Shown here one piece after another: positions 2,962 through 61,727 of a stretch of DNA of 64,000 nucleotides (position 1 is the stretch's first letter; the number at the start of each line of letters is the position of its first letter). The notes under the pieces are model-generated. The model saw nothing but the letters and a program-made list of their open reading frames with translations, did not search any database and was not told the origin of the DNA. The position numbers and the translations under genes were made by a program. Where the stretch lies: sequence record PZ386957.1, one strand, 5' to 3'. Origin of the DNA: a phage.

Positions 2962-5900
2962 ATGGCAGATTTACTAAGTCAACATTTTAAGGCCACATTT
3001 GGCTTTGATGCTGGTAATGAAAAGGTCGTCAATGTAGCATTGGCTGATAAGAACACTCTCACCGATGCCGTTAACGTTGAATTTTTCAATTACCATAACG
3101 GTATTACGCAGTATGACACAACTCGCGGTTATGATCAATACGGTACTGCAATTTATCAAAACCGTCCTTACTATGCAAAGGAAAACATCGCGAAGCCAGC
3201 GGGAGAATTTGATCCGACTAAATGGCAAGCACTGCGTACTGATCCGCGTTGGGATTACATTGCAGCGACTTCCGGCGATACTCCCCTAAAGTCTGGTGAT
3301 TATATCGCTGCGGATTGCCAATTTGCAAACTTAACATTCTCCATGCCTACTAAGCCAGCCGAAGGCGATACTATAACAGTAAAAGATATCGGTGGCAAGT
3401 GCGGTGTAAACGAATTGTCGTTCCTCGCATCTGGTCATGAGTTCTATCATAATGGCACAGTATACAATAGAAAATGGTATTGCACAACTCCTTATTCGAT
3501 GATGTATTTCATCTTTGCTCGTGGACGTTGGCATGTATACCAGACTGGAACAGAGCCGCGCGGGGTATATGCACAGCCAGCTATTGATCCAATCCAGATG
3601 CAAAACGGAGATCAGGTATTCCGTCGCAGTTCATTAGGTAATATTGTATTGAAATTACCTAAGTTTGCAAATAACGGTGATATCATCAATACCACGGACC
3701 TGGATGGATTGACCGCAACAAATCACGTTACCATCAAGACACACGAAGGAGCGCCGGACCATTCTATTGGTGCAGTCGGTGTAAAAGAGATTGTAGGCAA
3801 ACGTAGTGGTCACGGTGTATTCATCTTTGATATTACTGAAAACTTATGGCGTGTTTGGGATGGTGATCAGTCTGTACGCTTAACGCCTATCGCATCGGAT
3901 ACCCGCTTGCTGCCTAACACGTATGTCGCTGTATTCGGTGATCGCAATGTCACTTTAACATTGCCTACTAACGTAGAGATCGGGGATCGTATTCAGGTCG
4001 CATTACAATACATGCACGGTACACAAACTTGCAAGATTGTAACGTCTGGGGCAGATACCAAAATTTTAATGCAGAAAAACATGCTGCAATTCCCTAAACG
4101 CAGCGAATATCCGTTTAATGGATCTGATACGTGGAAGGAAGTAACAGAGTTATCTTTCAGTGCTGCAACTGATTATGTTCCGTATCTGGAGTTCTCTTAT
4201 TCAGAAGGTGATGACGGTAAAAAACACTGGTTAGTAGCACATGCTCATCCTATCGTAGAACGGGTAGATCCGACTCGTAAAGATCGTGTGGGTGTAATTG
4301 CGCTGGCTACTCAAGACGAAACCAATAAAAACCATGAGCAGAATCCGAGCGACGAAGTAGCTGTTACCCCTCGTGTGTTGGCTAATAAAACCGCAACCGA
4401 AACACGACGCGGTATTGCAAGAATTGCTACGCAAGCAGAAACGCATCAAAATACTGGTTCTAACTTCCTTGATGATGTTATCGTTACACCTAAAAAATTA
4501 AATGATTGTGTTGCTACTGAATCACGTCGTGGTGTGCTGGAAATTGCAACGCAAGCAGAGACTAACGAAGGTTTAGACGATACCCGCGCTATTACTCCTA
4601 AGAAATTAGAAGAACGTCGCGCGAGTGAAACGTTGGCAGGGATTGCGGAAATTATTACGGCTGGCGGTAACGCTGCGGCAGTTCGTGGTCAAGCTGGTTC
4701 CGGTATCTACGATATCAATGACCATGCTAAAATCGTTACTCCCCATAACCTGAATGAAGTTAAAGCGACAGAAACATCTCGCGGTGTAGGTTATCTGGCA
4801 ACTGACGCAGAAGTACAGGGAGCGACCGAAGCAACACCGCAAGATGCATTGTTAATCACTACCCGTACTTTGACTAAGCGTATTGCAACAGAAACGCGCA
4901 CGGGGATCGCGGAAATCGCTACTCAAGCAGAAACCAATCAGGGGCAGCTTGATACCCATATTGTTACGCCGTTAAAACTCAATAACCGTCGTGCAACCGA
5001 AACGCTACATGGTCTAGCAGAAATCGCAACTCAGGTTGAATTTGACACAGGTCGAGATGATGCTCGCATTTCTACCCCATTGAAGATTAAAACCTTCTTT
5101 GAGAATGCACAGCGTTTGAAAGTAGATCCTACTCAGGGGCTTAACCTTACTGGCGATTTGTGGCAAGGTATTACTATTCGCGGTCTGGATGCTGACGAAG
5201 CAACTAAAGGCGTTGCTAAAGTCGCTACTGTCCAGTTAACCGACGCTGGTACTGATGATACCACAATCATTACGCCGAAGAAATTACAAGGTAAAAAAGC
5301 CACTGAAGTTAAAGAAGGTATTATTCGTGTTGGTACTCAAGCCGAAACCGTAGCAGGTATACTGGATGATGTGGCAGTATCGCCGAAGAACTTCAAATAT
5401 GTTGTTCAGGTTGATGACACATGGAAAGCAACGGAAGCGCGTCGCGGTTTTCTGAAAGTATCTACAAAAGAAAACTGTTTTGTTGGTAATGACCTTGCTG
5501 GTTCCACTCAAGCAATTGATCAATATCTGCATGATGGAATCGCAGTTACCCCGCGTGGTTTAAACTATGCACTGGCTAACTTCTTACCTAAAATGGCAAC
5601 CGCTCAGAATAGTTTGAAATTAGGCAACGTAGAAGCCGCTAAATGGGCGCGTAGAGACGTTGATCAGACTATCGAGGCCAATTACACGTTTAAGAAAAAT
5701 ATCAACGTGGAGGGTGATTTAGAGTGCTTAAAATCAGGTACGTTTGAAACACTGTATGTAACCAAAAATTCAACTGACGAGGCGAGCACCGGAAATCTGG
5801 TATTAGGTATCCGTGGTCAAAATGGTCATACCGGAATTGCATTGCATGGCACAACCGGAGATATTGAGAACTCATGGGCTATGCTCGTAGGCGGTACTGG

Positions 5901-34140: not shown

Positions 34141-34776
34141 TCAATCGAATGTAGAAAGCAAATGTTTTGTTTCTTTCAGTTGTCGTTCAAGATCTTTGCG
34201 TTTCTCTTTAAGTTGCATTTTAGCATTATTTCGCTCTCTTGTAACCTCTTTATCAATGCTCTTATTCCACTTATCAATATCAGAATAAGTTGGCATACCC
34301 AATTCTAGACCTAATGCGGTTGGATACAGGGTAACAGTCCATAAACCGCTAATCTTCTTAAATAGGTCGGGGTGTAGTGTACTATCTACATCTTCCGGTG
34401 TCAACTCTTTTTCTTCTTTCAGTGGTGGGATCTCGTCATATGGTTCCAGTGCATTTACTTTAATATCAGATACCTCATCAAAGAATCCGCGTACATCCGC
34501 AGGAAATACACAAGCAATTTCCCAACCGTGATCACGCAGAGAAGTAATATTTTTCACTCCCCCACCATGTGTGATGATTGATGTGACATTGCCATCAAGG
34601 TCCACCGAATTTACGAGAAATGGCTTATCGTCTGTCAGATCATTATAAAACTGTGCTTCGGCTGTAGTCATCTCCAGAAACAGATCTCGGATCGGACGAC
34701 CATCAGGTGCGTTACCTTCCTTGAGAGTATAAAAGCGACTTACGATCCATTTTTGCGGTAAAGCATTAGCGATCAT
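34141..34776 (-). CDS. hypothetical protein (211 aa)
   Basis: ORF track; C-terminal coiled coil. Confidence 0.45.
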   Translation of the reverse strand: MIANALPQKWIVSRFYTLKEGNAPDGRPIRDLFLEMTTAEAQFYNDLTDDKPFLVNSVDLDGNVTSIITHGGGVKNITSLRDHGWEIACVFPADVRGFFDEVSDIKVNALEPYDEIPPLKEEKELTPEDVDSTLHPDLFKKISGLWTVTLYPTALGLELGMPTYSDIDKWNKSIDKEVTRERNNAKMQLKEKRKDLERQLKETKHLLSTFD

Positions 34777-50748: not shown

Positions 50749-52221
50749 CTATCTCCATTCTCGTTTATATTTGCGGTCTTTATCAATCCACTGTTGCACC
50801 ATCTCTATTGATTCAGGATCATTTTCATCAAGGGTAAACCCTTTCTTCTTCATGCGGTATTTGAAACCATCAAATCTTTTAGCCTCATCACTGGTCATAT
50901 TATGTTTCTTTTTAAATGATTGCTTACTCTTACGTTGACCACAATCAAGCTGAATCATTTTATCAGTGATAATTTTTGCATTAGGGAAAAATTCTTTGAT
51001 GTATTCAGCCAAAGGCCAATCAGGAACATAGAGATTTACTTCCTGTGTTGATTCGTTATCACGCAAATTGCTACGGAGACACAACTGAAAAGCCGAATCA
51101 AGATAATCGGTTAAATGACGCGCATCAACAAAATCATTGACAGGAAGATCACAACTACGTGCTAATCCGCGAAGAATATCAATTTCCCACGGACGAGCGT
51201 TATAGCTATACAATACCGCAACATTAGTATGATGTATATAATAGTTAAGACCATGTGGACCATATGATAAGCGAACACCTTTACCGCGTGTTGCGTATTC
51301 ACGGTCTTTGTTTACTGTATAGATGAAATTATCACCACATTCATTTATAACCAGGTCAATCATCTTTTCAAATGTACCATTAACCTTAGATTGATTTCGT
51401 GACCATCTCTCGGAATCGGTCATCAAAATGATGTTAACCCGGTGAGTATTCTTATACTCAGTAAAATACAATCTAGATCTTAACTCACTTTCGACAAATT
51501 CGCAACCAACATAATGTTTAAGATACTTCCCGCTATATGTTCGTTCCAGTTCAGCACTTGCTATAGTGACTTTCTTGAAATTTTCCCATACATGATGCTT
51601 TGTGTCGTTCAGGAAAATAACCCGTGATCCATTTTCTCGATGGCCATCATTATGCTTCACCATAACGCGAATCTTACTATTCAATAACGCTCCATAAAGC
51701 GATGTAAGCGCACTATCGATATAATCTAACCCTTTCTTACCCTCATCTAGTTTTTGCTTGATATAGGGCGTTTCAGAAGGTTTTAGAATTAATTCCTGCA
51801 TATCTTCCGATTTATCGGCTATTGGTTCGCAATATTTCAGAATCATACCCAAATTAGATTTAAGTGCGCATTCTTCAAACTCAACCAATTTAGGAACTTC
51901 GTCAATATAAAGGCTATAATCATTGAATAGCTTAGAAGGTTCCAGCGAGGCAAGCGCGTTATGTGTAATAAACAACACATCAATATCATCTCTAAGAGAT
52001 TGAATAATAGACGCTTGCACTGTCATGTAACTTTTTAGTTTGCTGTCACTATCAATCAAGACAGCACGACCGCCTAACTTCATAAACTTATTGTAAGATT
52101 GTTCACTTAAAACACGCGTTGGTGAAGCAATAACCGCTTTTTCTTTTGTCTCTAGGACGTGGGAAAGAATTGCGTCAGTCTTCCCCGCTGCTGGTAATGC
52201 GATTAATGTTTCAATTTTCAT
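50749..52221 (-). CDS. helicase-like P-loop NTPase (Walker A, motif Ia-like, DE-box)
   Basis: 490 aa; ALPAAGKT (Walker A), SPTRVLSEQ (motif Ia-like), LYIDEVP (Walker B/DExx), basic C-terminal tail; no T4 counterpart recognised. Confidence 0.5.
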   Translation of the reverse strand: MKIETLIALPAAGKTDAILSHVLETKEKAVIASPTRVLSEQSYNKFMKLGGRAVLIDSDSKLKSYMTVQASIIQSLRDDIDVLFITHNALASLEPSKLFNDYSLYIDEVPKLVEFEECALKSNLGMILKYCEPIADKSEDMQELILKPSETPYIKQKLDEGKKGLDYIDSALTSLYGALLNSKIRVMVKHNDGHRENGSRVIFLNDTKHHVWENFKKVTIASAELERTYSGKYLKHYVGCEFVESELRSRLYFTEYKNTHRVNIILMTDSERWSRNQSKVNGTFEKMIDLVINECGDNFIYTVNKDREYATRGKGVRLSYGPHGLNYYIHHTNVAVLYSYNARPWEIDILRGLARSCDLPVNDFVDARHLTDYLDSAFQLCLRSNLRDNESTQEVNLYVPDWPLAEYIKEFFPNAKIITDKMIQLDCGQRKSKQSFKKKHNMTSDEAKRFDGFKYRMKKKGFTLDENDPESIEMVQQWIDKDRKYKREWR

Positions 52222-52529: not shown

Positions 52530-52688
52530 TTACTTAATGATACTTACTTTACCAGATCCGTGACAATGAGCGCAACACCCATCACCACGCAATCCTGTTC
52601 CGTTACAGTGTTTACACTTCTTCAAAGGTAAAGCCATTATGGCAAATAAAGCAATAATGAACACCGAAACTAAATTCTCAATAATCAT
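52530..52688 (-). CDS. small membrane-anchored zinc-ribbon protein (52 aa; not in ORF track)
   Basis: MIIENLVSVFIIALFAIMALPLKKCKHCNGTGLRGDGCCAHCHGSGKVSIIK: one hydrophobic helix then two CxxCxGxG DnaJ-like units; SD GAGGG; alternative start at internal ATG 52637. Confidence 0.4.
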   Translation of the reverse strand: MIIENLVSVFIIALFAIMALPLKKCKHCNGTGLRGDGCCAHCHGSGKVSIIK

Positions 52689-52947
52689 AAATCGCCCTCA
52701 GTTCTTTATAGCCTCCAATGTGCTCGTTGTCAATGAATATCTGGGGGTATACAAATCGGAGGCTGTCTTTACCCAACCTCCCCGCCAGTTCTTCAATCAT
52801 ATCACGGTCGGGAATAATGTCAACCCCGACCTGCTTGAATACTGGTTTAAGTGTATACGGAATACCCAGATCATCCAGTAGCTTCATTGCACTAATACAA
52901 CCATAACAATGATAAGCCTCTTTCGGTATACCGTATATCTCGATCAT
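52678..52947 (-). CDS. glutaredoxin-like protein (NrdH-like)
   Basis: 89 aa; CYGC active site near N-terminus and VYPQIFIDNEHIGGYKEL glutaredoxin C-terminal motif. Confidence 0.75.
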   Translation of the reverse strand: MIEIYGIPKEAYHCYGCISAMKLLDDLGIPYTLKPVFKQVGVDIIPDRDMIEELAGRLGKDSLRFVYPQIFIDNEHIGGYKELRAIYDY

Positions 52948-53420
52948 TTCTCAGCCTTTAATCTTTCCAGTTCTTCTTCCAGTTCCTTGATGCGTTGTTC
53001 TCGTTCAAAATCACGCTGTAACTTAGTGGCGAATACTCGTTTAAACTGATTGTAATCATCGATTTTAAACACTTCTTCTTCGCCATAGCGACGTACAGAA
53101 ACTTCGTAGTTATTGAAGAATTGTTGCATCATTGCTTCGGATGATAGTTCTGCTGATACTACTTTAAAATATTGATCTTCTGTAGGCGAAAACCAATTGC
53201 AAGCATAAAGATAAACCTTTTCATTGTCTGGACACTGGTAAGCCTTACCATCGATTTCAATCACAGAAACATATTCAGGTATAGTAGATGAATCAATAGC
53301 TAAGACTTTAAACTGACGGTCCCCGATAAACTCGGAGATCGCACGATTCGCATCACTGATCGCAAATGCTTTACGCGCTTGTTCGTTTTTCCACTGATAG
53401 GTCATGCCAACAACAAACAT
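52944..53420 (-). CDS. member of repeat-containing paralogous family (one N-terminal repeat unit plus coiled-coil tail)
   Basis: MTYQWKNEQARKAF...FKVLAIDSS...IEIDGKAY resembles the repeat unit in neighbouring genes; start moved to Met with SD GAGG. Confidence 0.5.
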   Translation of the reverse strand: MFVVGMTYQWKNEQARKAFAISDANRAISEFIGDRQFKVLAIDSSTIPEYVSVIEIDGKAYQCPDNEKVYLYACNWFSPTEDQYFKVVSAELSSEAMMQQFFNNYEVSVRRYGEEEVFKIDDYNQFKRVFATKLQRDFEREQRIKELEEELERLKAEK

Positions 53421-53421
53421 A

Positions 53422-54255
53422 TTACCAACCTCGCTCTTTACCAATCAAAAATTCAACTTCACGACGTTTAATGTCTTCTTGAAGGTCTTTAATCTTCTGG
53501 CGATCTTGCATGATTTCGTCCATTTTGTCAAGTGCTGCGATGAAATCATCGAAACGTTCAAAGGTTTTACCTTCATTTGCTTCGCCAAATTTAACCATTG
53601 TCAGGCCGTAACGACTACTAAACAGACGTTTCAACTGTCCAACGACCTTAGAATCATCGTTCACCTTTTCTTCTGGTTCTTTCACTGTTTCAACTTCACG
53701 AAAATATTTTCGTTCAAGCCCAACAAACCACACAGCATCAACATCATCATCAACACCCGCCGAATGAGGATTAAATGTTCCACAAGCATTATCATTATTG
53801 ACGTCGATCATAGTAACGAAACCAACAGAATCAACGGAAGATACCGTAAAAGTCTCATCTCCTATCCAATCAGCAATTTTACGGTTGATATTAGAACAGT
53901 GAGAAAACGTCACTTTTGCGTTTACATCTTTCCAAGTATAAGTTTTACCAACTTCCCATTTAGGAGGAACTTCTTCAACTTCACGAAAGAATTTTCTATC
54001 GAATGGACTAAAGAAATATGTTGATGTCCAAATGTCTTTTCCTGTAGCAGTTTTCGCCGTATGATAAACACCGTCTAGCTCTATTGCATCAATCCAACCG
54101 TTACCCTCGATCTCGATGATGGTAAATGGCTTGTCACCAATAGCTACACTAATATCGCTGTTAAGTGGAGAAAGACAACCGTCTACGTTAGTAATAAACT
54201 CAGTTTTAGCGTTTTCGTCTTTCCAAGTGTAAGTTTTACCAATTTCCCATTTCAT
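53422..54255 (-). CDS. member of repeat-containing paralogous family (two tandem repeat units)
   Basis: KWEIGKTYTWKDENAKTEF...RKFFREV and KWEVGKTYTWKDVNAKVTF...RKYFREV; preceded by AGAGGATTATATT-ATG. Confidence 0.55.
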   Translation of the reverse strand: MKWEIGKTYTWKDENAKTEFITNVDGCLSPLNSDISVAIGDKPFTIIEIEGNGWIDAIELDGVYHTAKTATGKDIWTSTYFFSPFDRKFFREVEEVPPKWEVGKTYTWKDVNAKVTFSHCSNINRKIADWIGDETFTVSSVDSVGFVTMIDVNNDNACGTFNPHSAGVDDDVDAVWFVGLERKYFREVETVKEPEEKVNDDSKVVGQLKRLFSSRYGLTMVKFGEANEGKTFERFDDFIAALDKMDEIMQDRQKIKDLQEDIKRREVEFLIGKERGW

Positions 54256-54267
54256 AATATAATCCTC

Positions 54268-54732
54268 TTAACCGATTTTATCAAGTTCGTTTAATGCTTT
54301 CTCTGCTTCCTGTATAGCTTGCACCCTTTCCGGCATTTTGTCAAGAAAATCTTTCAACTCTTCAAAACTGGAGATATGACGCAAGGCGTTAGCACCGATA
54401 GCCGCATGTGATTTGCATTCAAAGCGAATTTTATAATTATCCATCGCCAACTTGAGAAGATCAATTAGTTTAGATTCTTCTGGAATAATAATTTCTTCAA
54501 ATCTGCTACGGTCATGATCCAGAAACCAACAAGATAGACCTACATCGGTTGAACTCATATAAGTTCCATCATGAAGATATACAGACCGCACGTATCCTTT
54601 TTTCGCATCAACCGACGCAACTTTAAACGGTAATCTCAGATATTTCAAATAATCAACATCATACCATTTAAAAAATTGGTTTGCATCTTTTACATCTTTC
54701 CACGCATAGGTCTTACCAGCTTCCCATTTCAT
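54268..54732 (-). CDS. member of repeat-containing paralogous family
   Basis: MKWEAGKTYAWKDVKDANQFF... plus conserved C-terminal helical module (FLDKMPERVQAI). Confidence 0.5.
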   Translation of the reverse strand: MKWEAGKTYAWKDVKDANQFFKWYDVDYLKYLRLPFKVASVDAKKGYVRSVYLHDGTYMSSTDVGLSCWFLDHDRSRFEEIIIPEESKLIDLLKLAMDNYKIRFECKSHAAIGANALRHISSFEELKDFLDKMPERVQAIQEAEKALNELDKIG

Positions 54733-54736
54733 AATA

Positions 54737-55267
54737 TCATCTCTCATTTTTGATACGTGATTCTAATTGGATCATACGGTCGCGCGTTTGCTTGTATTCA
54801 CGGATAGCACCGATCCGGCTAGGCATACCATCTAGGACGCTCTTAATCCCTTCTAGGGTAGTGATTTTAGCAATGCTATTATGTAACCCCATCTTATCGA
54901 TCAACTGAATGTCGTAGGCTTCCATAAGCAGTCCCAGACGTTCTAAGGTTAAATCTTGTTCTTTATCTTCTTCCGATTCTGGAATCTTAGGTTCAATAGT
55001 AACTTCGGTAAAGAAACGACGCTCACCACCCCAAAACCACACACCGGAACAGTCAATAGGGGATTCTTTTAAAGTCATGGAGTCGAAATCACTACCAATA
55101 ATAGTAATTTCTCTAACATCACCATCGTCGTCAATGTCTTCTACCTTAAACGGGCGACCAGCCAACAGGTCCATAATACATCTGTTAATACCAGACGAAA
55201 ATTTAGTCAGTTCGGCTTTCGACGCTTCGCATTCAATCTTGTAAGTTTTACCAACTTCCCATTCCAT
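54737..55267 (-). CDS. member of repeat-containing paralogous family
   Basis: MEWEVGKTYKIECEASKAELTKF...GERRFFTEV plus C-terminal helical module (VLDGMPSRIGAI). Confidence 0.5.
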   Translation of the reverse strand: MEWEVGKTYKIECEASKAELTKFSSGINRCIMDLLAGRPFKVEDIDDDGDVREITIIGSDFDSMTLKESPIDCSGVWFWGGERRFFTEVTIEPKIPESEEDKEQDLTLERLGLLMEAYDIQLIDKMGLHNSIAKITTLEGIKSVLDGMPSRIGAIREYKQTRDRMIQLESRIKNER

Positions 55268-55277
55268 AATAATCACC

Positions 55278-55787
55278 TCAAATAATTTTCACTGGAATAC
55301 TATTAACAATCTTGTATTGTACTTGATTGTCAGACCCCCGCCACGGCTTCTTCGTTGGCATATCTTTAATATAACGCCCATCGATGAACATGTCAACTGA
55401 TTCTACAATTTTTCTTTGCTCATCATTCAATTGGTCAAGGGTATAACCGGACCATAGCCAAATATCTTTATTTGGCATCCATGATTTTACTTCATCGATG
55501 ATCCGCTGTACACCCTTTAAATTGCGTTTATACAGTGGATCACCACCTAAGAATGTTAGCCCCTGAATAAAATCAGGTCTAAGCAGATCCAGAATCAATC
55601 CCATTGTATCATCGGTGAATGGTTCCCCGTTCTTAGGATTGAGTAGGCTAGCATTAAAGCAACCATCACATGCGTGTGAACATCCGGTAACGTAAAGGGA
55701 GACTCTCACTCCCTCACCGTTAACCATATCACAATCTTTAATATCGGCATAGCGTAGTTTGCCGTATGTATCAGAACTCATATTCAA
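55278..55787 (-). CDS. nrdG: anaerobic ribonucleotide reductase activating protein NrdG (radical SAM)
   Basis: 169 aa; CSHACDGC cluster motif (CxxxCxxC), GLTFLGGDPL; adjacent to the nrdD region. Confidence 0.88.
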   Translation of the reverse strand: MNMSSDTYGKLRYADIKDCDMVNGEGVRVSLYVTGCSHACDGCFNASLLNPKNGEPFTDDTMGLILDLLRPDFIQGLTFLGGDPLYKRNLKGVQRIIDEVKSWMPNKDIWLWSGYTLDQLNDEQRKIVESVDMFIDGRYIKDMPTKKPWRGSDNQVQYKIVNSIPVKII

Positions 55788-55923
55788 TTACCCCGAACTC
55801 GTTTACAATCTGCGCTTTATAGTAACCACCGCGAGATGCTAATAGATAAGCTGGGCTTAGGTATTCGTATTCACGGATTTCTACTTGTGCGTTTTCAGTT
55901 TCCCAAATCAGTAAAGTCCACAT
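55771..55923 (-). CDS. hypothetical protein (50 aa; start moved to internal Met)
   Basis: ATG at 55923 preceded by AGGAGAATCAAAT and an upstream promoter. Confidence 0.35.
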   Translation of the reverse strand: MWTLLIWETENAQVEIREYEYLSPAYLLASRGGYYKAQIVNEFGVIEYEF

Positions 55924-55998: not shown

Positions 55999-56547
55999 TT
56001 ATTTTAAATTTTTTCGAATGTATTCAGACCATTCCTTCCCTGTCAGTTCGGTCCCATTCTGGAAACTGAAATATTCATACGGCATCGAGTCAAGATAAAA
56101 CAGGATCATACATCGCGCCATATAATACCAATCACGATTAAAGTAAACTACGTTATCACCAGTACCATCAACCCCTTTATCATAACCATCGCTGGTACGG
56201 GCGACCCATTGAATAGTATCATTTTTCTCACGGATAGTCACAGGTTCCCAATATCCAGCACATCCAGCATGACCACACGAACAAGTAAGGAAATATTGCC
56301 CTTTTGCTTTGTTGTCATCCCATTCACGATGGATTGGTTCGATCTCGTGAAACAGTGCCAAACAATCATGATTATGCAACACTGGCTTACCATCAATCAA
56401 TGCATGGAATGTATACAAACGACCCGTAGACAAATAGCTATCCTCACGCTCAACCAGTTCAATAGCAATCTTTTTAGCTCGTTCTTTGTGTCGTTGTGCT
56501 TTACGCTTACGGTTTAATGATTTCATATTCACCTCACACATTATCAA
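55999..56547 (-). CDS. hypothetical Cys-rich protein (182 aa)
   Basis: ORF track; HNHDCLALFH and CSCGHAGCAGYW could bind metal; function unknown. Confidence 0.45.
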   Translation of the reverse strand: MIMCEVNMKSLNRKRKAQRHKERAKKIAIELVEREDSYLSTGRLYTFHALIDGKPVLHNHDCLALFHEIEPIHREWDDNKAKGQYFLTCSCGHAGCAGYWEPVTIREKNDTIQWVARTSDGYDKGVDGTGDNVVYFNRDWYYMARCMILFYLDSMPYEYFSFQNGTELTGKEWSEYIRKNLK

Positions 56548-57083
56548 AGGTCGCGATATAGTACATTATGAAAATGAGAACTTGCATTACCAATATTGTA
56601 GATAACAAATTCTTCATCCGGCGCTTGCGCTACAAATTGAGTATGAGCAACCGCTACGACTTTAAAAATACGATCCGTGATCTTGTGCTTAATTTCTGCC
56701 CCTACTTCCATAGGAACATATTCATTTGTTTCTGTTTCAGTCGCAAAACAGCCATCTTCTTCATAAGCACGAACAAATCGGTCGCAATCAGTACGCTTAA
56801 CAAATTCAAGAGTATATAATTCTCGTGAATTGTCGGTATAGACCAATACAGAATTATTATGATAGCGAATCACATACAGGTTATTATCATCGTCAATTAC
56901 GCAAAAGCTACGGATTCCTTCGCCTTGACTCCAGCAGATATTAACCACCGTTCCTCTAATAAAAAAACTTTCCTTTAAATTAAAACTAGTCAATGTGCTA
57001 GCGTGCATTTTAACAACAACACCATCACCAATTTCCAGTTTACGAAGTTTAACTTCTTTGCTCAGTACACAAAACATCATCAT
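56544..57083 (-). CDS. hypothetical protein (179 aa; start moved to MMMF Met)
   Basis: ATG at 57083 preceded by AGAGAGGACAAT and promoter TTGACA-16-TATAAT. Confidence 0.45.
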   Translation of the reverse strand: MMMFCVLSKEVKLRKLEIGDGVVVKMHASTLTSFNLKESFFIRGTVVNICWSQGEGIRSFCVIDDDNNLYVIRYHNNSVLVYTDNSRELYTLEFVKRTDCDRFVRAYEEDGCFATETETNEYVPMEVGAEIKHKITDRIFKVVAVAHTQFVAQAPDEEFVIYNIGNASSHFHNVLYRDL

Positions 57084-57111
57084 ATTGTCCTCTCTTTGTT
57101 TCGATGTGAGC

Positions 57112-57139
57112 ATTATACATGAGCTAATCATGTTGTCAA
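57112..57139 (-). promoter_or_regulatory. early sigma70-type promoter (TTGACA-16-TATAAT)
   Basis: Minus strand consensus -35 and -10. Confidence 0.6.
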
Positions 57140-57150
57140 CACCCCAAAAC

Positions 57151-57177
57151 GAAAAAGCCGACCCTTTCGGATCGGCT
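57151..57177 (-). terminator. rho-independent terminator downstream of nrdD
   Basis: Minus strand AGCCGATCC-GAAA-GGGTCGGCT followed by TTTTC. Confidence 0.7.
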
Positions 57178-59089: not shown

Positions 59090-59584
59090 TTATTTTACCA
59101 GTTCTGCTAATTCTTTTTCCGCCGCTTCCAGTTCAGCTTTCAGTTGTTTGATCTCTTGTCGCTTCTTATTAGCGGCTTCCTGCTTACTATTTCGGATAAC
59201 CTGATCTAGATACAACTCCCAATCCTGAATATTTTTGATAATGTAGCCGTCAACATTAATTGGTCGGAGATTCAGTACAGCTTCCAGTTTAGTTGCAAAA
59301 ACTTTAATTGCTGGGGTGAAGTATTCATATTCGTTATCTTCAAACCAATAACCTAGACTTGCATTCTCAATACGAAGATGAAGTTTAAGATCAAGGTCTT
59401 TATCATCGGTATATAGGTCTTTTACACACCCCATAGAATTAACAACAACTTTAAAACGAATTTTATCTACACCACCAAAAACATCTTCAAGAATATCAGC
59501 AATTGAGCTATTAGCGCAAGATTGGTCGCTGAATGCGTCAAGGTTTTCTTTAGTTACAGTATACCAAACATCTTGTACCCACAT
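59090..59584 (-). CDS. hypothetical protein with C-terminal coiled coil (164 aa)
   Basis: ORF track; AGAGGATTATATT-ATG leader. Confidence 0.45.
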   Translation of the reverse strand: MWVQDVWYTVTKENLDAFSDQSCANSSIADILEDVFGGVDKIRFKVVVNSMGCVKDLYTDDKDLDLKLHLRIENASLGYWFEDNEYEYFTPAIKVFATKLEAVLNLRPINVDGYIIKNIQDWELYLDQVIRNSKQEAANKKRQEIKQLKAELEAAEKELAELVK

Positions 59585-59614
59585 AATATAATCCTCTCGT
59601 TGTTAAGTGGGAGT

Positions 59615-59642
59615 ATTATAGCATACTCCCTTCGCATGTCAA
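59615..59642 (-). promoter_or_regulatory. early sigma70-type promoter with inverted repeat around -10 (PeSL-like)
   Basis: TTGACA-16-TATAAT with GGGAGTA/TACTCCC flanking the -10. Confidence 0.65.
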
Positions 59643-60817
59643 GCACTAACTTTTTTCTTTACTGCTTTCACCTTCTGGCGAATTGCTCGAATCTCTTCGA
59701 TCTCTTTTTCAGTCTCTTTAACAATTTCTTTGCGATTCTGAATATCTGTATCGAGATTATCATCAAGTTTAGGCAGCATGTCAATCAAGAACTTTTTAAA
59801 GTCTTTCAGGTTTCGAATAACAGCACCTTCGCCCATTACCGCAACACCCACACCATCCGGCAGATCACCAAACAGCTTAACCAGTTCAGACAGATGATCA
59901 TGATCTTCTAGTGCTTCTTCCGGTTCAGATGGCAGTTCAACAAAGTTATAACGTTCATCATTGCTGATCAAGTGATACCAGCAAAGCCCGAAAGATTTCG
60001 GTGTATATTCTACACCATCAATTTCAACCGCGTCAACACTTCCATAATCATCTACTTTAGTTACCTTAAATCCTTGTCCCAGCTTTTGAACAATTTCAAC
60101 AACATGACTTGATACAGTTTCAGCGGTAAACCAATATGGCAAATTATGCTGATTTGGCTTGTAGCGTTCACCTACTTTAAATCTCTGACCATCCGCTTGC
60201 ATAGAATGAAATTGTTGTTTCGTGATTTCCGCGAAGTATTCAAATTCGCCACCATCAAACACACAAGCCCATTGATCACAAAAACGATCTGCCTTAACAG
60301 TTTCACCTTTCGCGGTGATCATGGTAGCTGATCCGTGCAATTCTTCTTCAACTAAAAAGCCATATTCGACAAAATCAACAAGTTTCATAGCTTCTTTGTG
60401 ATCTGGATCATGCTCTCCCCAGAATCGCTTAAATTCTTGCAAACCTTCTGGGGTAAACGAATAACATTTACCTTTTTCAAAGTAAGTCGGCATTGCATCC
60501 TCTTTCTTGTTCATCGCTTCGTATGCCTCTTTTGAGATGCGTTTAAAGTATTTACGCTCATTGTGCATAATCATAGTAGCCCAATAATCAACAATATCAT
60601 TAGCGGAATAAACTACATCTCCAGCTTCAATAGTAATAACATGACCGTGGTCATCTTTTTCTAATACTTTAAAGCCCTTTTCTACGATTTCAGCAACCCG
60701 AATATGACCACGGCGCGAAGCATCGGTCAGAATAATTGAATAGCGAGAAAAGTCTAGAAACTCATCTTTACCGCCTTCACGGAATGCATAGTAATGACCT
60801 TCAAAGAATTTAGCCAT
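59639..60817 (-). CDS. member of repeat-containing paralogous family (three or more repeat units plus C-terminal helical module)
   Basis: 392 aa; repeated units around NERKYFKRISKEAYEAM, GKCYSFTPEGLQEFKRFW, GFKVLEKDD, GFKVTKVDDYGSVDAVEIDGVEY; C-terminal LKDFKKFLIDMLPKL module. Confidence 0.55.
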   Translation of the reverse strand: MAKFFEGHYYAFREGGKDEFLDFSRYSIILTDASRRGHIRVAEIVEKGFKVLEKDDHGHVITIEAGDVVYSANDIVDYWATMIMHNERKYFKRISKEAYEAMNKKEDAMPTYFEKGKCYSFTPEGLQEFKRFWGEHDPDHKEAMKLVDFVEYGFLVEEELHGSATMITAKGETVKADRFCDQWACVFDGGEFEYFAEITKQQFHSMQADGQRFKVGERYKPNQHNLPYWFTAETVSSHVVEIVQKLGQGFKVTKVDDYGSVDAVEIDGVEYTPKSFGLCWYHLISNDERYNFVELPSEPEEALEDHDHLSELVKLFGDLPDGVGVAVMGEGAVIRNLKDFKKFLIDMLPKLDDNLDTDIQNRKEIVKETEKEIEEIRAIRQKVKAVKKKVSA

Positions 60818-60848
60818 AATATAATCCTCTCGTTGTTTAGATGGGAGT

Positions 60849-60877
60849 ATCTTACTACTCCCGTTTCATCATGTCAA
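60849..60877 (-). promoter_or_regulatory. early sigma70-type promoter with inverted repeat around -10 (PeSL-like)
   Basis: TTGACA-17-TAAGAT with GGGAGTA/TACTCCC flanking the -10. Confidence 0.65.
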
Positions 60878-61440
60878 GCGTTAAATGACTTTTGGATCTC
60901 TTTCAGTTCAGCTACTTTATCGGCGCTATATTTTGCTTGATGTTCCATGCGCTTAAGCTCACCTTTGATATAGGTTTCTAGCTTAGGTTTATTCTCAATC
61001 AGAAAATCTTTCAAGTCATCGGCATTTTTAAAGTATAGCTGATTATCAAAGCTAAAATCTTCCAGCGTCAAGGATACCAAAGAAGATTTCGCAAACAAGT
61101 TAATCAGATCTTCCAGAGATTCTTCTTTCTTAACTGGTTTCATTTCTTCAAACTGCTTTTTAGTGATGCGTTTAAAGTATTTGCGCTCGTTTGCAGCAAT
61201 CAGAACAGATGCACCTTCATACCCATGAGTTTCTACCAGATACACACGCCCCATCGCATCAACAGTGAGAACTTTAAAGCCGTTACAAAGCACGTCATAC
61301 AAGAACTTATTATGTTGCGGACATCGTTTGATAAATTCTGCGGCTGTTTCTGCACTACGGAAAGTGTAATAACGACCTCGTTCAAAAGCAGCATCATTTG
61401 AAGACTTAGCCGGATACAATTTATACGTTTTCTGTACCAT
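60874..61440 (-). CDS. member of repeat-containing paralogous family
   Basis: GRYYTFRSAETAAEF...GFKVLTVDAMGRVYLVE...NERKYFKRITKKQFEEM plus C-terminal LKDFLIENKPKL module; start moved to Met with AGAGGATTATATT leader. Confidence 0.5.
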   Translation of the reverse strand: MVQKTYKLYPAKSSNDAAFERGRYYTFRSAETAAEFIKRCPQHNKFLYDVLCNGFKVLTVDAMGRVYLVETHGYEGASVLIAANERKYFKRITKKQFEEMKPVKKEESLEDLINLFAKSSLVSLTLEDFSFDNQLYFKNADDLKDFLIENKPKLETYIKGELKRMEHQAKYSADKVAELKEIQKSFNA

Positions 61441-61454
61441 AATATAATCCTCTA

Positions 61455-61727
61455 TCATTTCACTAATTGAACAGCACGAAACAGAATGCGGTCACACGGA
61501 AGAAGCATAAATTCCCAACGCGGATCAAAGTCTTTAGCGGTATATGTTTTCCCATCAACCGAGATTTCACTTACATAACCAATAGGTGACACTTTAAGAA
61601 CAGTAAACCCATTCTTGATGACTTCGTAGGTATCTTTCAAACCTTCGTAGTCATCCTCTAGGAAGTCTTTACGTGCTTGCTCAGATTTAAAAACATAGGC
61701 CACACCGGATTTAAACATCTTACGCAT
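61455..61727 (-). CDS. member of repeat-containing paralogous family (single repeat unit, 90 aa)
   Basis: MRKMFKSGVAYVFKSEQARKDFL...GFTVLKVSPIGYVSEISVDGKTY; start moved to Met with AAGGAGAATCAACA leader. Confidence 0.5.
   Translation of the reverse strand: MRKMFKSGVAYVFKSEQARKDFLEDDYEGLKDTYEVIKNGFTVLKVSPIGYVSEISVDGKTYTAKDFDPRWEFMLLPCDRILFRAVQLVK

Follow-up and report, generated by a model that had tools for sequence, protein, structure and literature searches.

Ever since the rho/nusD studies, the GoF protein of phage T4 (ComC-alpha, NP_049624) has puzzled geneticists. Work by Kim et al. in 2025 assigned GoF together with MotB.1 and Frd.2 to a single family of proteins described as "LSm-like", whose nearest structures are FeoA-type SH3-like domains and in which a flexible linker joins the barrel to variable C-terminal domains (PMC12152347). 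The goF gene, along with motB.1 and frd.2, is dispensable in the laboratory, goF mutations suppress rho alleles, and a wild-type function has not been established for the family (PMC12152347). Neither RB49 nor Krischvirus is mentioned in that paper, nor are tandem arrays. Here we describe four adjacent minus-strand genes, designated A to D, in a 64,000-nucleotide (nt) stretch of phage DNA (sequence record PZ386957.1), the whole of which is referred to below as the window. These genes carry five copies of a ~90-residue unit and appear to represent a lineage-specific tandem expansion of the GoF/Frd.2/MotB.1 family of T4-type accessory proteins, with barrels that seem to be traded as cassettes between genomes. 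Confidence in the family identity and the cassette dynamics taken together is high.

Across positions 52600–55800 the window is 96.7% identical to Shigella phage JK32 and 93–97% identical to RB49, JSE, Phi1 and ~55 other phages, and the source phage is therefore evidently a Krischvirus, i.e., one of the RB49-like "pseudo-T-even" Straboviridae (T4-type coliphages). The initial annotation, made from the letters of the sequence without database searches, had described a tandem array of four minus-strand open reading frames (ORFs) built from a repeated ~90-residue unit, and this description was borne out. The ORFs span 52944–53444 (A), 53422–54255 (B), 54268–54747 (C) and 54737–55276 (D), with likely ATG starts at 53420, 54255, 54732 and 55267, respectively, and they lie packed in the order D, C, B, A between nrdG and nrdH. 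Genes A, C and D each hold one unit and gene B holds two. The array and its conserved flanks are arranged as follows.

55278–55781, minus strand: nrdG, conserved upstream flank; Pfam Fer4_12, E 2e-43; 99–100% identity across Krischvirus.
54737–55267, minus strand: gene D, RB49p051 orthologue, 176 amino acids (aa); one GoF-like barrel unit (54986–55267), an acidic linker and a helical C-terminal module; leave-one-out hidden Markov model (HMM) E 5.4e-13; phrog_5347, E 1e-65; AlphaFold2 predicted local distance difference test score (pLDDT) ~90 in the barrel.
54268–54732, minus strand: gene C, RB49p050 orthologue, 154 aa; one unit (54478–54732) and a C-terminal module with a homologue in that of D (hhalign 94%, E 1.4e-7).
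53422–54255, minus strand: gene B, RB49p049 orthologue, 277 aa; tandem units at 53968–54255 and 53677–53967 (HMM 130 and 123 bits) and a C-terminal module with a long terminal helix (53422–53676).
52944–53420, minus strand: gene A, RB49p048 orthologue, 158 aa; one unit (53145–53420) and a C-terminal helical module; the start is the ATG equivalent to the one annotated in RB49 and JK32.
52678–52947, minus strand: nrdH glutaredoxin, conserved downstream flank; Pfam Glutaredoxin; same annotation in deposited records.

The four genes are the orthologues of RB49p048 (A), p049 (B), p050 (C) and p051 (D). They are labelled "hypothetical protein" in the deposited records inspected and are not mentioned in the papers comparing the RB49 and phi1 genomes. 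Intergenic gaps within D-C-B-A measure only 1–12 nt, and gene A ends with a stop codon that overlaps the nrdH start; such packing suggests co-transcription and translational coupling.

The family assignment is carried by profile comparisons. A profile built from the five units aligns end to end with residues 4–91 of T4 GoF (translated from the T4 record), scoring 27 bits. An extended profile of 80 units, built from the matches of the exhaustive HMMER search described below, scores 55.7 bits against GoF (E 1e-15), 35.2 bits against Frd.2 and 20.7 bits against MotB.1, in each case over its full length (positions 2–87 of 88). The window units are 22–27% identical to the N-terminal domain of GoF and so lie nearer to GoF than Frd.2 (18%) or MotB.1 (17%) do. 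PHROG matches include the goF families 13003, 2980 and 8944, and all four A–D proteins match PHROG 5347, whose function is unassigned there, over essentially the whole 165-position profile (E 1e-59 to 1e-70). Pfam, NCBIfam and PADLOC returned nothing for the A–D proteins, and no window protein matches Pfam PF03197 (FRD2; gathering threshold 29 bits) at E up to 0.1, a profile against which T4 Frd.2 scores 133 bits. The initial annotation had called the fold and function of the unit unrecognisable by eye, a statement that is now outdated in that the unit corresponds to the N-terminal barrel that GoF has in common with MotB.1 and Frd.2, described in 2025 (PMC12152347).

The units are also related to each other. 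BLASTP among the four proteins gives 26–31% identity and 27–50 bits in five of six gene pairs (A–C is the weakest, at 20 bits), often with alignments collinear through the whole protein, and each unit scores 88–130 bits against the five-unit HMM. Profiles built with one gene left out were run against 987 six-frame ORFs of the window and recovered the omitted gene every time (E 4.9e-14 for A, 5.6e-31 for B, 1.4e-7 for C and 5.4e-13 for D); the similarity of A–D therefore evidently reflects homology and not composition. Since each gene is found without the help of its own sequence, the possibility of unrelated units or of likeness confined to low-complexity stretches, raised together with the original description of the array, is answered as well. 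The unit signature given in that description is the consensus of the alignment (F-E-x-G-x-x-Y ... F-K-V-x-x-V-D-x-x-G-x-V ... E-R-x-Y-F-x-E, with Y9, F44 and F90 invariant), and the proposal of paralogy through tandem duplication likewise stands. Likeness between units at the DNA level is limited to two short islands, one at the unit starts (73 nt, 66–74% identity) and one at the ends of both B units (28 nt, 86%); as just these two islands are still alike, the duplications are evidently old.

A C-terminal helical module had been described as common to three of the genes, and this is upheld for C and D only. The modules of these two proteins are related at 94% hhalign probability (E 1.4e-7), with a pairwise score of 30.8 bits and HMM scores of 21–22 bits that were reached by none of 200 shuffled sequences. 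The module of B is marginal: the profiles of C and of C+D give it 5–8 bits, a score matched by 0/200 shuffles, but it does not rise above shuffles with the D profile and reaches 11% in hhalign. That of A is weaker still in its likeness to the others. A single C-terminal module for all paralogues was accordingly rejected as a candidate, the only significant relations being those between C and D and between p058 and p059 of a second array (see below). A weak "FL-D-x-MP" motif is common to the C-terminal modules of the A–D array and to those of the second array/Dc2 group.

The behaviour of the array was followed across eight Krischvirus genomes, i.e., the window, JK32, RB49, PHB13, MIZ4, Brandy and two metagenomic contigs (168–170 kb). 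The order nrdG-D-C-B-A-nrdH is invariant and the frames are intact in all eight, and megablast locates the locus in 59 phage records. The nrdG and nrdD genes are 96–100% identical across the eight genomes; genes A–D fall into discrete allele classes, between which the barrels are 40–66% identical and the adjoining C-terminal modules 86–100%. Synonymous divergence (dS) is saturated in the divergent barrels (1.0–2.0) and low in the neighbouring C-terminal modules (0.1–0.7). Along the genes, the first eight codons have a nucleotide identity of 92–100% in A, B and C and of 75% in the comparison made for D; identity falls to 33–83%, mostly 40–70%, in the barrel body, and is 83–100% in the C-terminal module. 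The breakpoints are sharp, as seen along B, with identity dropping from 96–100% to 33–60%. In close pairs with usable counts, the ratio of nonsynonymous to synonymous divergence (dN/dS) of the barrels is 0.2–0.8 and never exceeds 1, and that of the C-terminal modules is 0.02–0.12 in A, C and D, with values as high as 0.4 for the module of B. Among 37 orthologues of D, entropy is 1.05 in helix alpha-2 compared with 0.10 in the C-terminal module, and the loops are also variable.

The number of units in gene B depends on the genome: the window and the majority of Krischvirus genomes have two, and there are others with one. Unit 2 of the window's B (53677–53967) is 40–42% identical to unit 2 of the four RB49-type genomes examined by domain. 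An allele at least 90% identical to that of the window is present in three of 60 records (JK32, FL04 and one not listed), and 55 of the 60 carry a B that is only 60–80% identical overall. This variation in unit number, together with the fusion of the barrel to differing C-terminal domains family-wide, supports the domain shuffling proposed from the window alone.

The saturated dS of the barrels, the low dS of the C-terminal modules and the sharp breakpoints point to recombinational replacement, and not to demonstrated positive selection: the barrel is swapped as a cassette, via homologous recombination with old, deeply diverged alleles, under purifying selection. The conserved DNA islands at unit starts and ends and the coexistence of one- and two-unit B alleles also speak for this exchange. 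The "rapid diversification" of the initial annotation is not supported in that form, given the same contrast in dS, the breakpoints and a dN/dS below 1. Two other sources of diversity were considered and rejected. Gene conversion between paralogous units disagrees with the clustering of units by position and not by genome, i.e., the barrels are positionally orthologous, and gene-wide positive selection disagrees with a dN/dS below 1 everywhere.

The genes around the array have similar histories. Between nrdD and nrdG, the unrelated orf56544 and orf55999 (55999–57131, minus strand) also occur as discrete alleles, with 59% identity in JK32 and 49% in contig L006. A 490-aa ORF at 50749–52221 (minus strand), with a weak Pfam DEAD link, is 67–68% identical to its counterparts in six genomes and 79% in contig L005, with dS of 0.9–1.9, and its neighbours on the side examined are 87–97% identical. 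Because these unrelated neighbours are mosaic too, recombination appears to be a property of the region and not of the GoF family alone. Specific to the GoF family is the way in which the breakpoints keep to the boundary between the domains.

These patterns bear on two other explanations of the array. The first is a counter-defence or host-range repertoire, in which the different barrel alleles serve to neutralise variable immunity or exclusion proteins of the host, or to escape recognition by them, and the arrays and their swapping reflect selection by different E. coli strains. Such a role would suit the position of A–D in a plastic accessory region beside the conserved nrd genes, the circulation of deeply diverged alleles inside one genus, the confinement of variation to one surface-bearing domain with the rest constant, the varying unit copy number, the rarity of the window's B allele and the dispensability of the T4 family members in laboratory hosts (PMC12152347). 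However, the A–D proteins have no similarity to characterised anti-defence proteins, the neighbours are equally mosaic, dN/dS is below 1, and PADLOC, whose library holds models of defence and not of anti-defence systems, finds nothing. This explanation is regarded as unlikely. In the second, A–D would be decaying or functionless duplicate ORFs carried in a hyperplastic region; they have no known function and are probably dispensable like their T4 homologues. This is scarcely credible, and is effectively refuted by conservation and selection: the frames are intact and in the same order in 8/8 genomes, the locus persists in the 59 deposited records, the tight packing suggests translational coupling, and the C-terminal modules of A, C and D are under strong purifying selection, with dN/dS well below 1.

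Structure prediction supports the family assignment. The AlphaFold2 model of D, made from 26 aligned orthologues and paralogues, has a mean pLDDT of 78 and a barrel modelled mostly at ~90 (77–95 per ten-residue block). In its topology, strand 1 leads into a pair of helices and then strands 2 and 3, and a short fourth strand and a short helix precede strand 5. Next come an acidic disordered linker at residues 94–104 (pLDDT <50) and a lower-confidence C-terminal part with a long end helix. The model of B has two barrels of similar topology, a linker at residues 190–222 with pLDDT <50, and a 40-residue terminal helix. The unit is thus predicted to be an SH3-like, five-stranded, bent small beta-barrel with two helices inserted after strand 1, and A–D share with the described family both this barrel and the flexible linker to a variable C-terminal domain. 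A Foldseek search of the PDB gave no significant match. Matches in BFVD were to uncharacterised proteins of many Straboviridae (phages of Aeromonas, Proteus, Edwardsiella, Morganella, Pectobacterium, Citrobacter, Serratia and other hosts) and of a few other large myoviruses. In the alignment with T4 GoF, units B1, B2 and D, three of the array's five, naturally have K or R at the column of the G84R rho-suppressor, and the column of D25 falls at the variable junction between the two inserted helices.

LSm proteins typically start with an N-terminal helix. The units and the Hfq/LSm proteins are alike in being five-stranded, strongly bent small barrels, and "LSm-like" is the term used for the family in the literature, but the combination of an N-terminal alpha-helix, five bent strands and Sm1/Sm2 motifs that characterises LSm/Hfq was not found in the units. 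Likewise, neither sequence similarity to the FeoA or DtxR C-terminal SH3-like domains nor a Pfam FeoA match was detected, and the likeness of the units to FeoA and to the C-terminal SH3-like domain of DtxR/IdeR/SloR is in fold only; GoF itself is without the metal-coordinating histidines of FeoA-type domains (PMC12152347). The predicted fold agrees with the published assignment, and the "LSm" label finds no support in the searches made here.

A further reading sees A–D as LSm/Hfq-like RNA chaperones whose barrels would form rings that bind phage or host RNA directly. The published label, the stabilisation of a reporter mRNA by GoF(D25Y) (PMC12152347) and the K or R of B1, B2 and D at the G84R column speak for it. 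Against these stand a topology that opens with a strand and two inserted helices and not with the typical LSm N-terminal helix, and the charge of the units, four of the five in the array being acidic (isoelectric point, pI, of 4.5–4.8) and that of C near neutral (6.7). Wild-type GoF and MotB.1, moreover, were reported to be without the RNA effect, and no homo-oligomer was predicted with confidence by AlphaFold3 (PMC12152347). Direct RNA chaperones of this kind are considered improbable. Even more doubtful is a role as transcription modulators binding RNA polymerase or Rho, in which the barrel would dock in the manner of Tudor, CarD-RID or KOW domains and cause antitermination, as was first proposed for ComC-alpha. 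The suppression of rho alleles by goF mutations would fit such a role, but the reporter work indicates a post-transcriptional and not a transcriptional effect (PMC12152347), and no conserved RNA polymerase-contact motif was identified.

The A–D array is part of a larger complement. A profile scan of RB49 positions 1–145,000 together with the window, which covers the rest of the genome, identified 12 units in nine genes, namely those of the A–D array, a second array and Dc2, and none elsewhere. The second array (59090–61727, minus strand) lies between nrdD and gene 49 and comprises the orthologues of RB49p057–p060, four genes that hold 1, 3, 1 and 1 units in turn.

59090–59584, minus strand: first gene of the second array, orthologous to RB49p057; one unit and a helical C-terminal part; extended profile 50 bits.
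59639–60817, minus strand: second gene of the second array, orthologous to RB49p058, 392 aa; three units in tandem (61, 50 and 63 bits) and a C-terminal module; phrog_8944 "goF mRNA metabolism modulator"; RefSeq gene frd.2, goF-like product.
60874–61458, minus strand: third gene of the second array, orthologous to RB49p059; a single unit, which is basic (pI 9.2), and a C-terminal module; 55 bits; RefSeq product "goF mRNA metabolism modulator".
61455–61727, minus strand: fourth gene of the second array, orthologous to RB49p060, 90 aa; the unit stands alone, without a C-terminal module; 75 bits; phrog_16115.
34141–34776, minus strand: Dc2 orthologue, 211 aa, a distant solitary member; matched end to end by the extended profile (30 bits, E 1e-7); the RB49 counterpart is annotated Dc2.

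The second array and Dc2 resemble A–D in carrying the GoF-type unit and the unit-linker-helical module architecture in the same genome, but they are only 19–29% identical to the first unit of gene B. The p058 and p059 products are already goF-like in RefSeq, whereas p048–p051 (A–D) are labelled hypothetical. The BFVD fold matches include Dc2 from phage ECD7. In RB49, dc2 directly adjoins the helicase gene 41; in T4, GoF(D25Y) affects the mRNA level of that gene. Promoter-like signals were also noted in the window. Just downstream of nrdD (57112–57177, minus strand), a G+C-rich hairpin and T-run are directly followed by a perfect sigma-70 consensus (TTGACA, 16 nt, TATAAT), an arrangement resembling the "promoter-early stem-loop" cassettes of RB49 and phi1 (PMC2839356), and a second perfect consensus promoter is located at 59615–59642.

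The exhaustive HMMER search, against 1.84 billion representatives, returned 92 clusters at E up to 1e-3. Ten giant proteins among them (P0061, P0074, P0084, P0087, P0089, P0101, P0118, P0122, P0135 and P0140) were rejected as false positives; six of the seven that were scanned with Pfam consist of fn3, cadherin-like or Big repeats, in which many partial profile matches summed to E <1e-3. The remaining ~80 clusters are proteins of 75–392 residues, nearly all with one to three units at or near the N terminus and with differing C-terminal parts. When two metagenomic multi-unit representatives (P0062 and P0079) were compared by tblastn with the phage collection, no match was obtained. Given single proteins, a word-indexed homologue search found only Krischvirus orthologues, and given the unit alignment it found nine matches. 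In Yersinia phage MHG19 (Tevenvirinae; L014, 6188–7747), three adjacent family genes carry 1, 1 and 2 units, and a weaker partial match lies at 4942–5451. Tandem arrays and multi-unit proteins therefore evidently recur in the GoF family. The MHG19 array differs from A–D in that it sits at the T4 goF position by the topoisomerase gene 39, and its proteins are ~31% identical to B.

As a whole, the observations are best explained by a tandem expansion of the GoF family with a swappable barrel and a constant helical module, and we consider this probable on balance. Each protein comprises one or two N-terminal SH3-like barrels of ~90 residues, an acidic disordered linker and a small C-terminal part ending in a long helix. 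Following tandem duplication of the genes, the conserved "MKWEVGKTY.WKD" start and the C-terminal module would serve as recombination flanks between which the barrel body is exchanged. The barrel would provide a variable target-recognition surface and the constant C-terminal module would mediate oligomerisation or contact with a common effector, the terminal long helix probably self-associating; GoF and MotB.1 have been observed to migrate as monomer and dimer (PMC12152347). Given the acidic character of four of the five units and the lack of a strong RNA effect of wild-type GoF, a protein or ribonucleoprotein seems a likelier target than naked RNA.

By analogy with GoF, A–D may act in host takeover and post-transcriptional control of mRNA. 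Replication and nucleotide-metabolism genes are early or middle genes in T4, and A–D are on the same strand as these genes; their own expression may be early. This functional mechanism is put forward tentatively, as several points weigh against it. The binding role of the barrel, the early timing and the involvement of mRNA are inferred, and the self-association of the helix is a guess from the long terminal helix of models in which the linker and C-terminal parts have a pLDDT of 37–77. The consensus promoter scan found no strong promoter inside the A–D array, and with dN/dS below 1 an arms race is not directly indicated. In T4, only the mutant GoF(D25Y) stabilises the gene 41 reporter mRNA, and wild-type GoF has no strong RNA effect (PMC12152347). 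A bolder possibility, which we think unlikely, is that the GoF barrels form a recombination-driven library of variable binders, with about a dozen per phage mounted on constant helical scaffolds and with cassettes traded among relatives so as to suit host targets that vary, for instance defence proteins or the RNA-decay or termination factors of particular strains. If true, host takeover inside the cell would involve a modular specificity system, with a logic comparable to the swapping of tail-fibre tips.

With 12 barrels in nine genes in the RB49-like phages, the GoF family makes up a major part of the accessory gene set of T4-type phages, and four genes that are "hypothetical" in the deposited genomes examined gain a family name. 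The restriction of natural variation to the barrel marks it as the probable specificity module, and the one- and two-unit forms of B and the four alleles of A offer allele sets for swaps. The dS pattern also carries a caution, in that strong amino-acid divergence in phage accessory genes can stem from recombination with old alleles and not from fast positive selection.

Compared with the described members of the family, A–D are most like T4 GoF, with which they share the homologous N-terminal barrel of ~90 residues, an acidic linker followed by a short C-terminal part, the character of small acidic proteins, and a place in the accessory regions of T4-type phages (as early genes in T4). They differ from it in that the C-terminal module of GoF is unrelated by sequence to theirs, and in locus, as A–D lie between nrdG and nrdH and T4 goF between genes 39 and dexA, where RB49 has no goF. 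The A–D genes and the second array are tandem arrays with two- and three-unit proteins, unlike T4 GoF, and the rho-suppressor genetics belongs to T4 GoF only. T4 Frd.2 and MotB.1 belong to the same barrel family at the profile level (35 and 21 bits) but are much more distant, and PF03197 covers residues 26–128 of Frd.2. The four genes are best seen as unannotated members of the family described in 2025 and not as a separate kind of system; what is new here is the size of the expansion, its organisation in two arrays and the exchange of the barrel alone between genomes.

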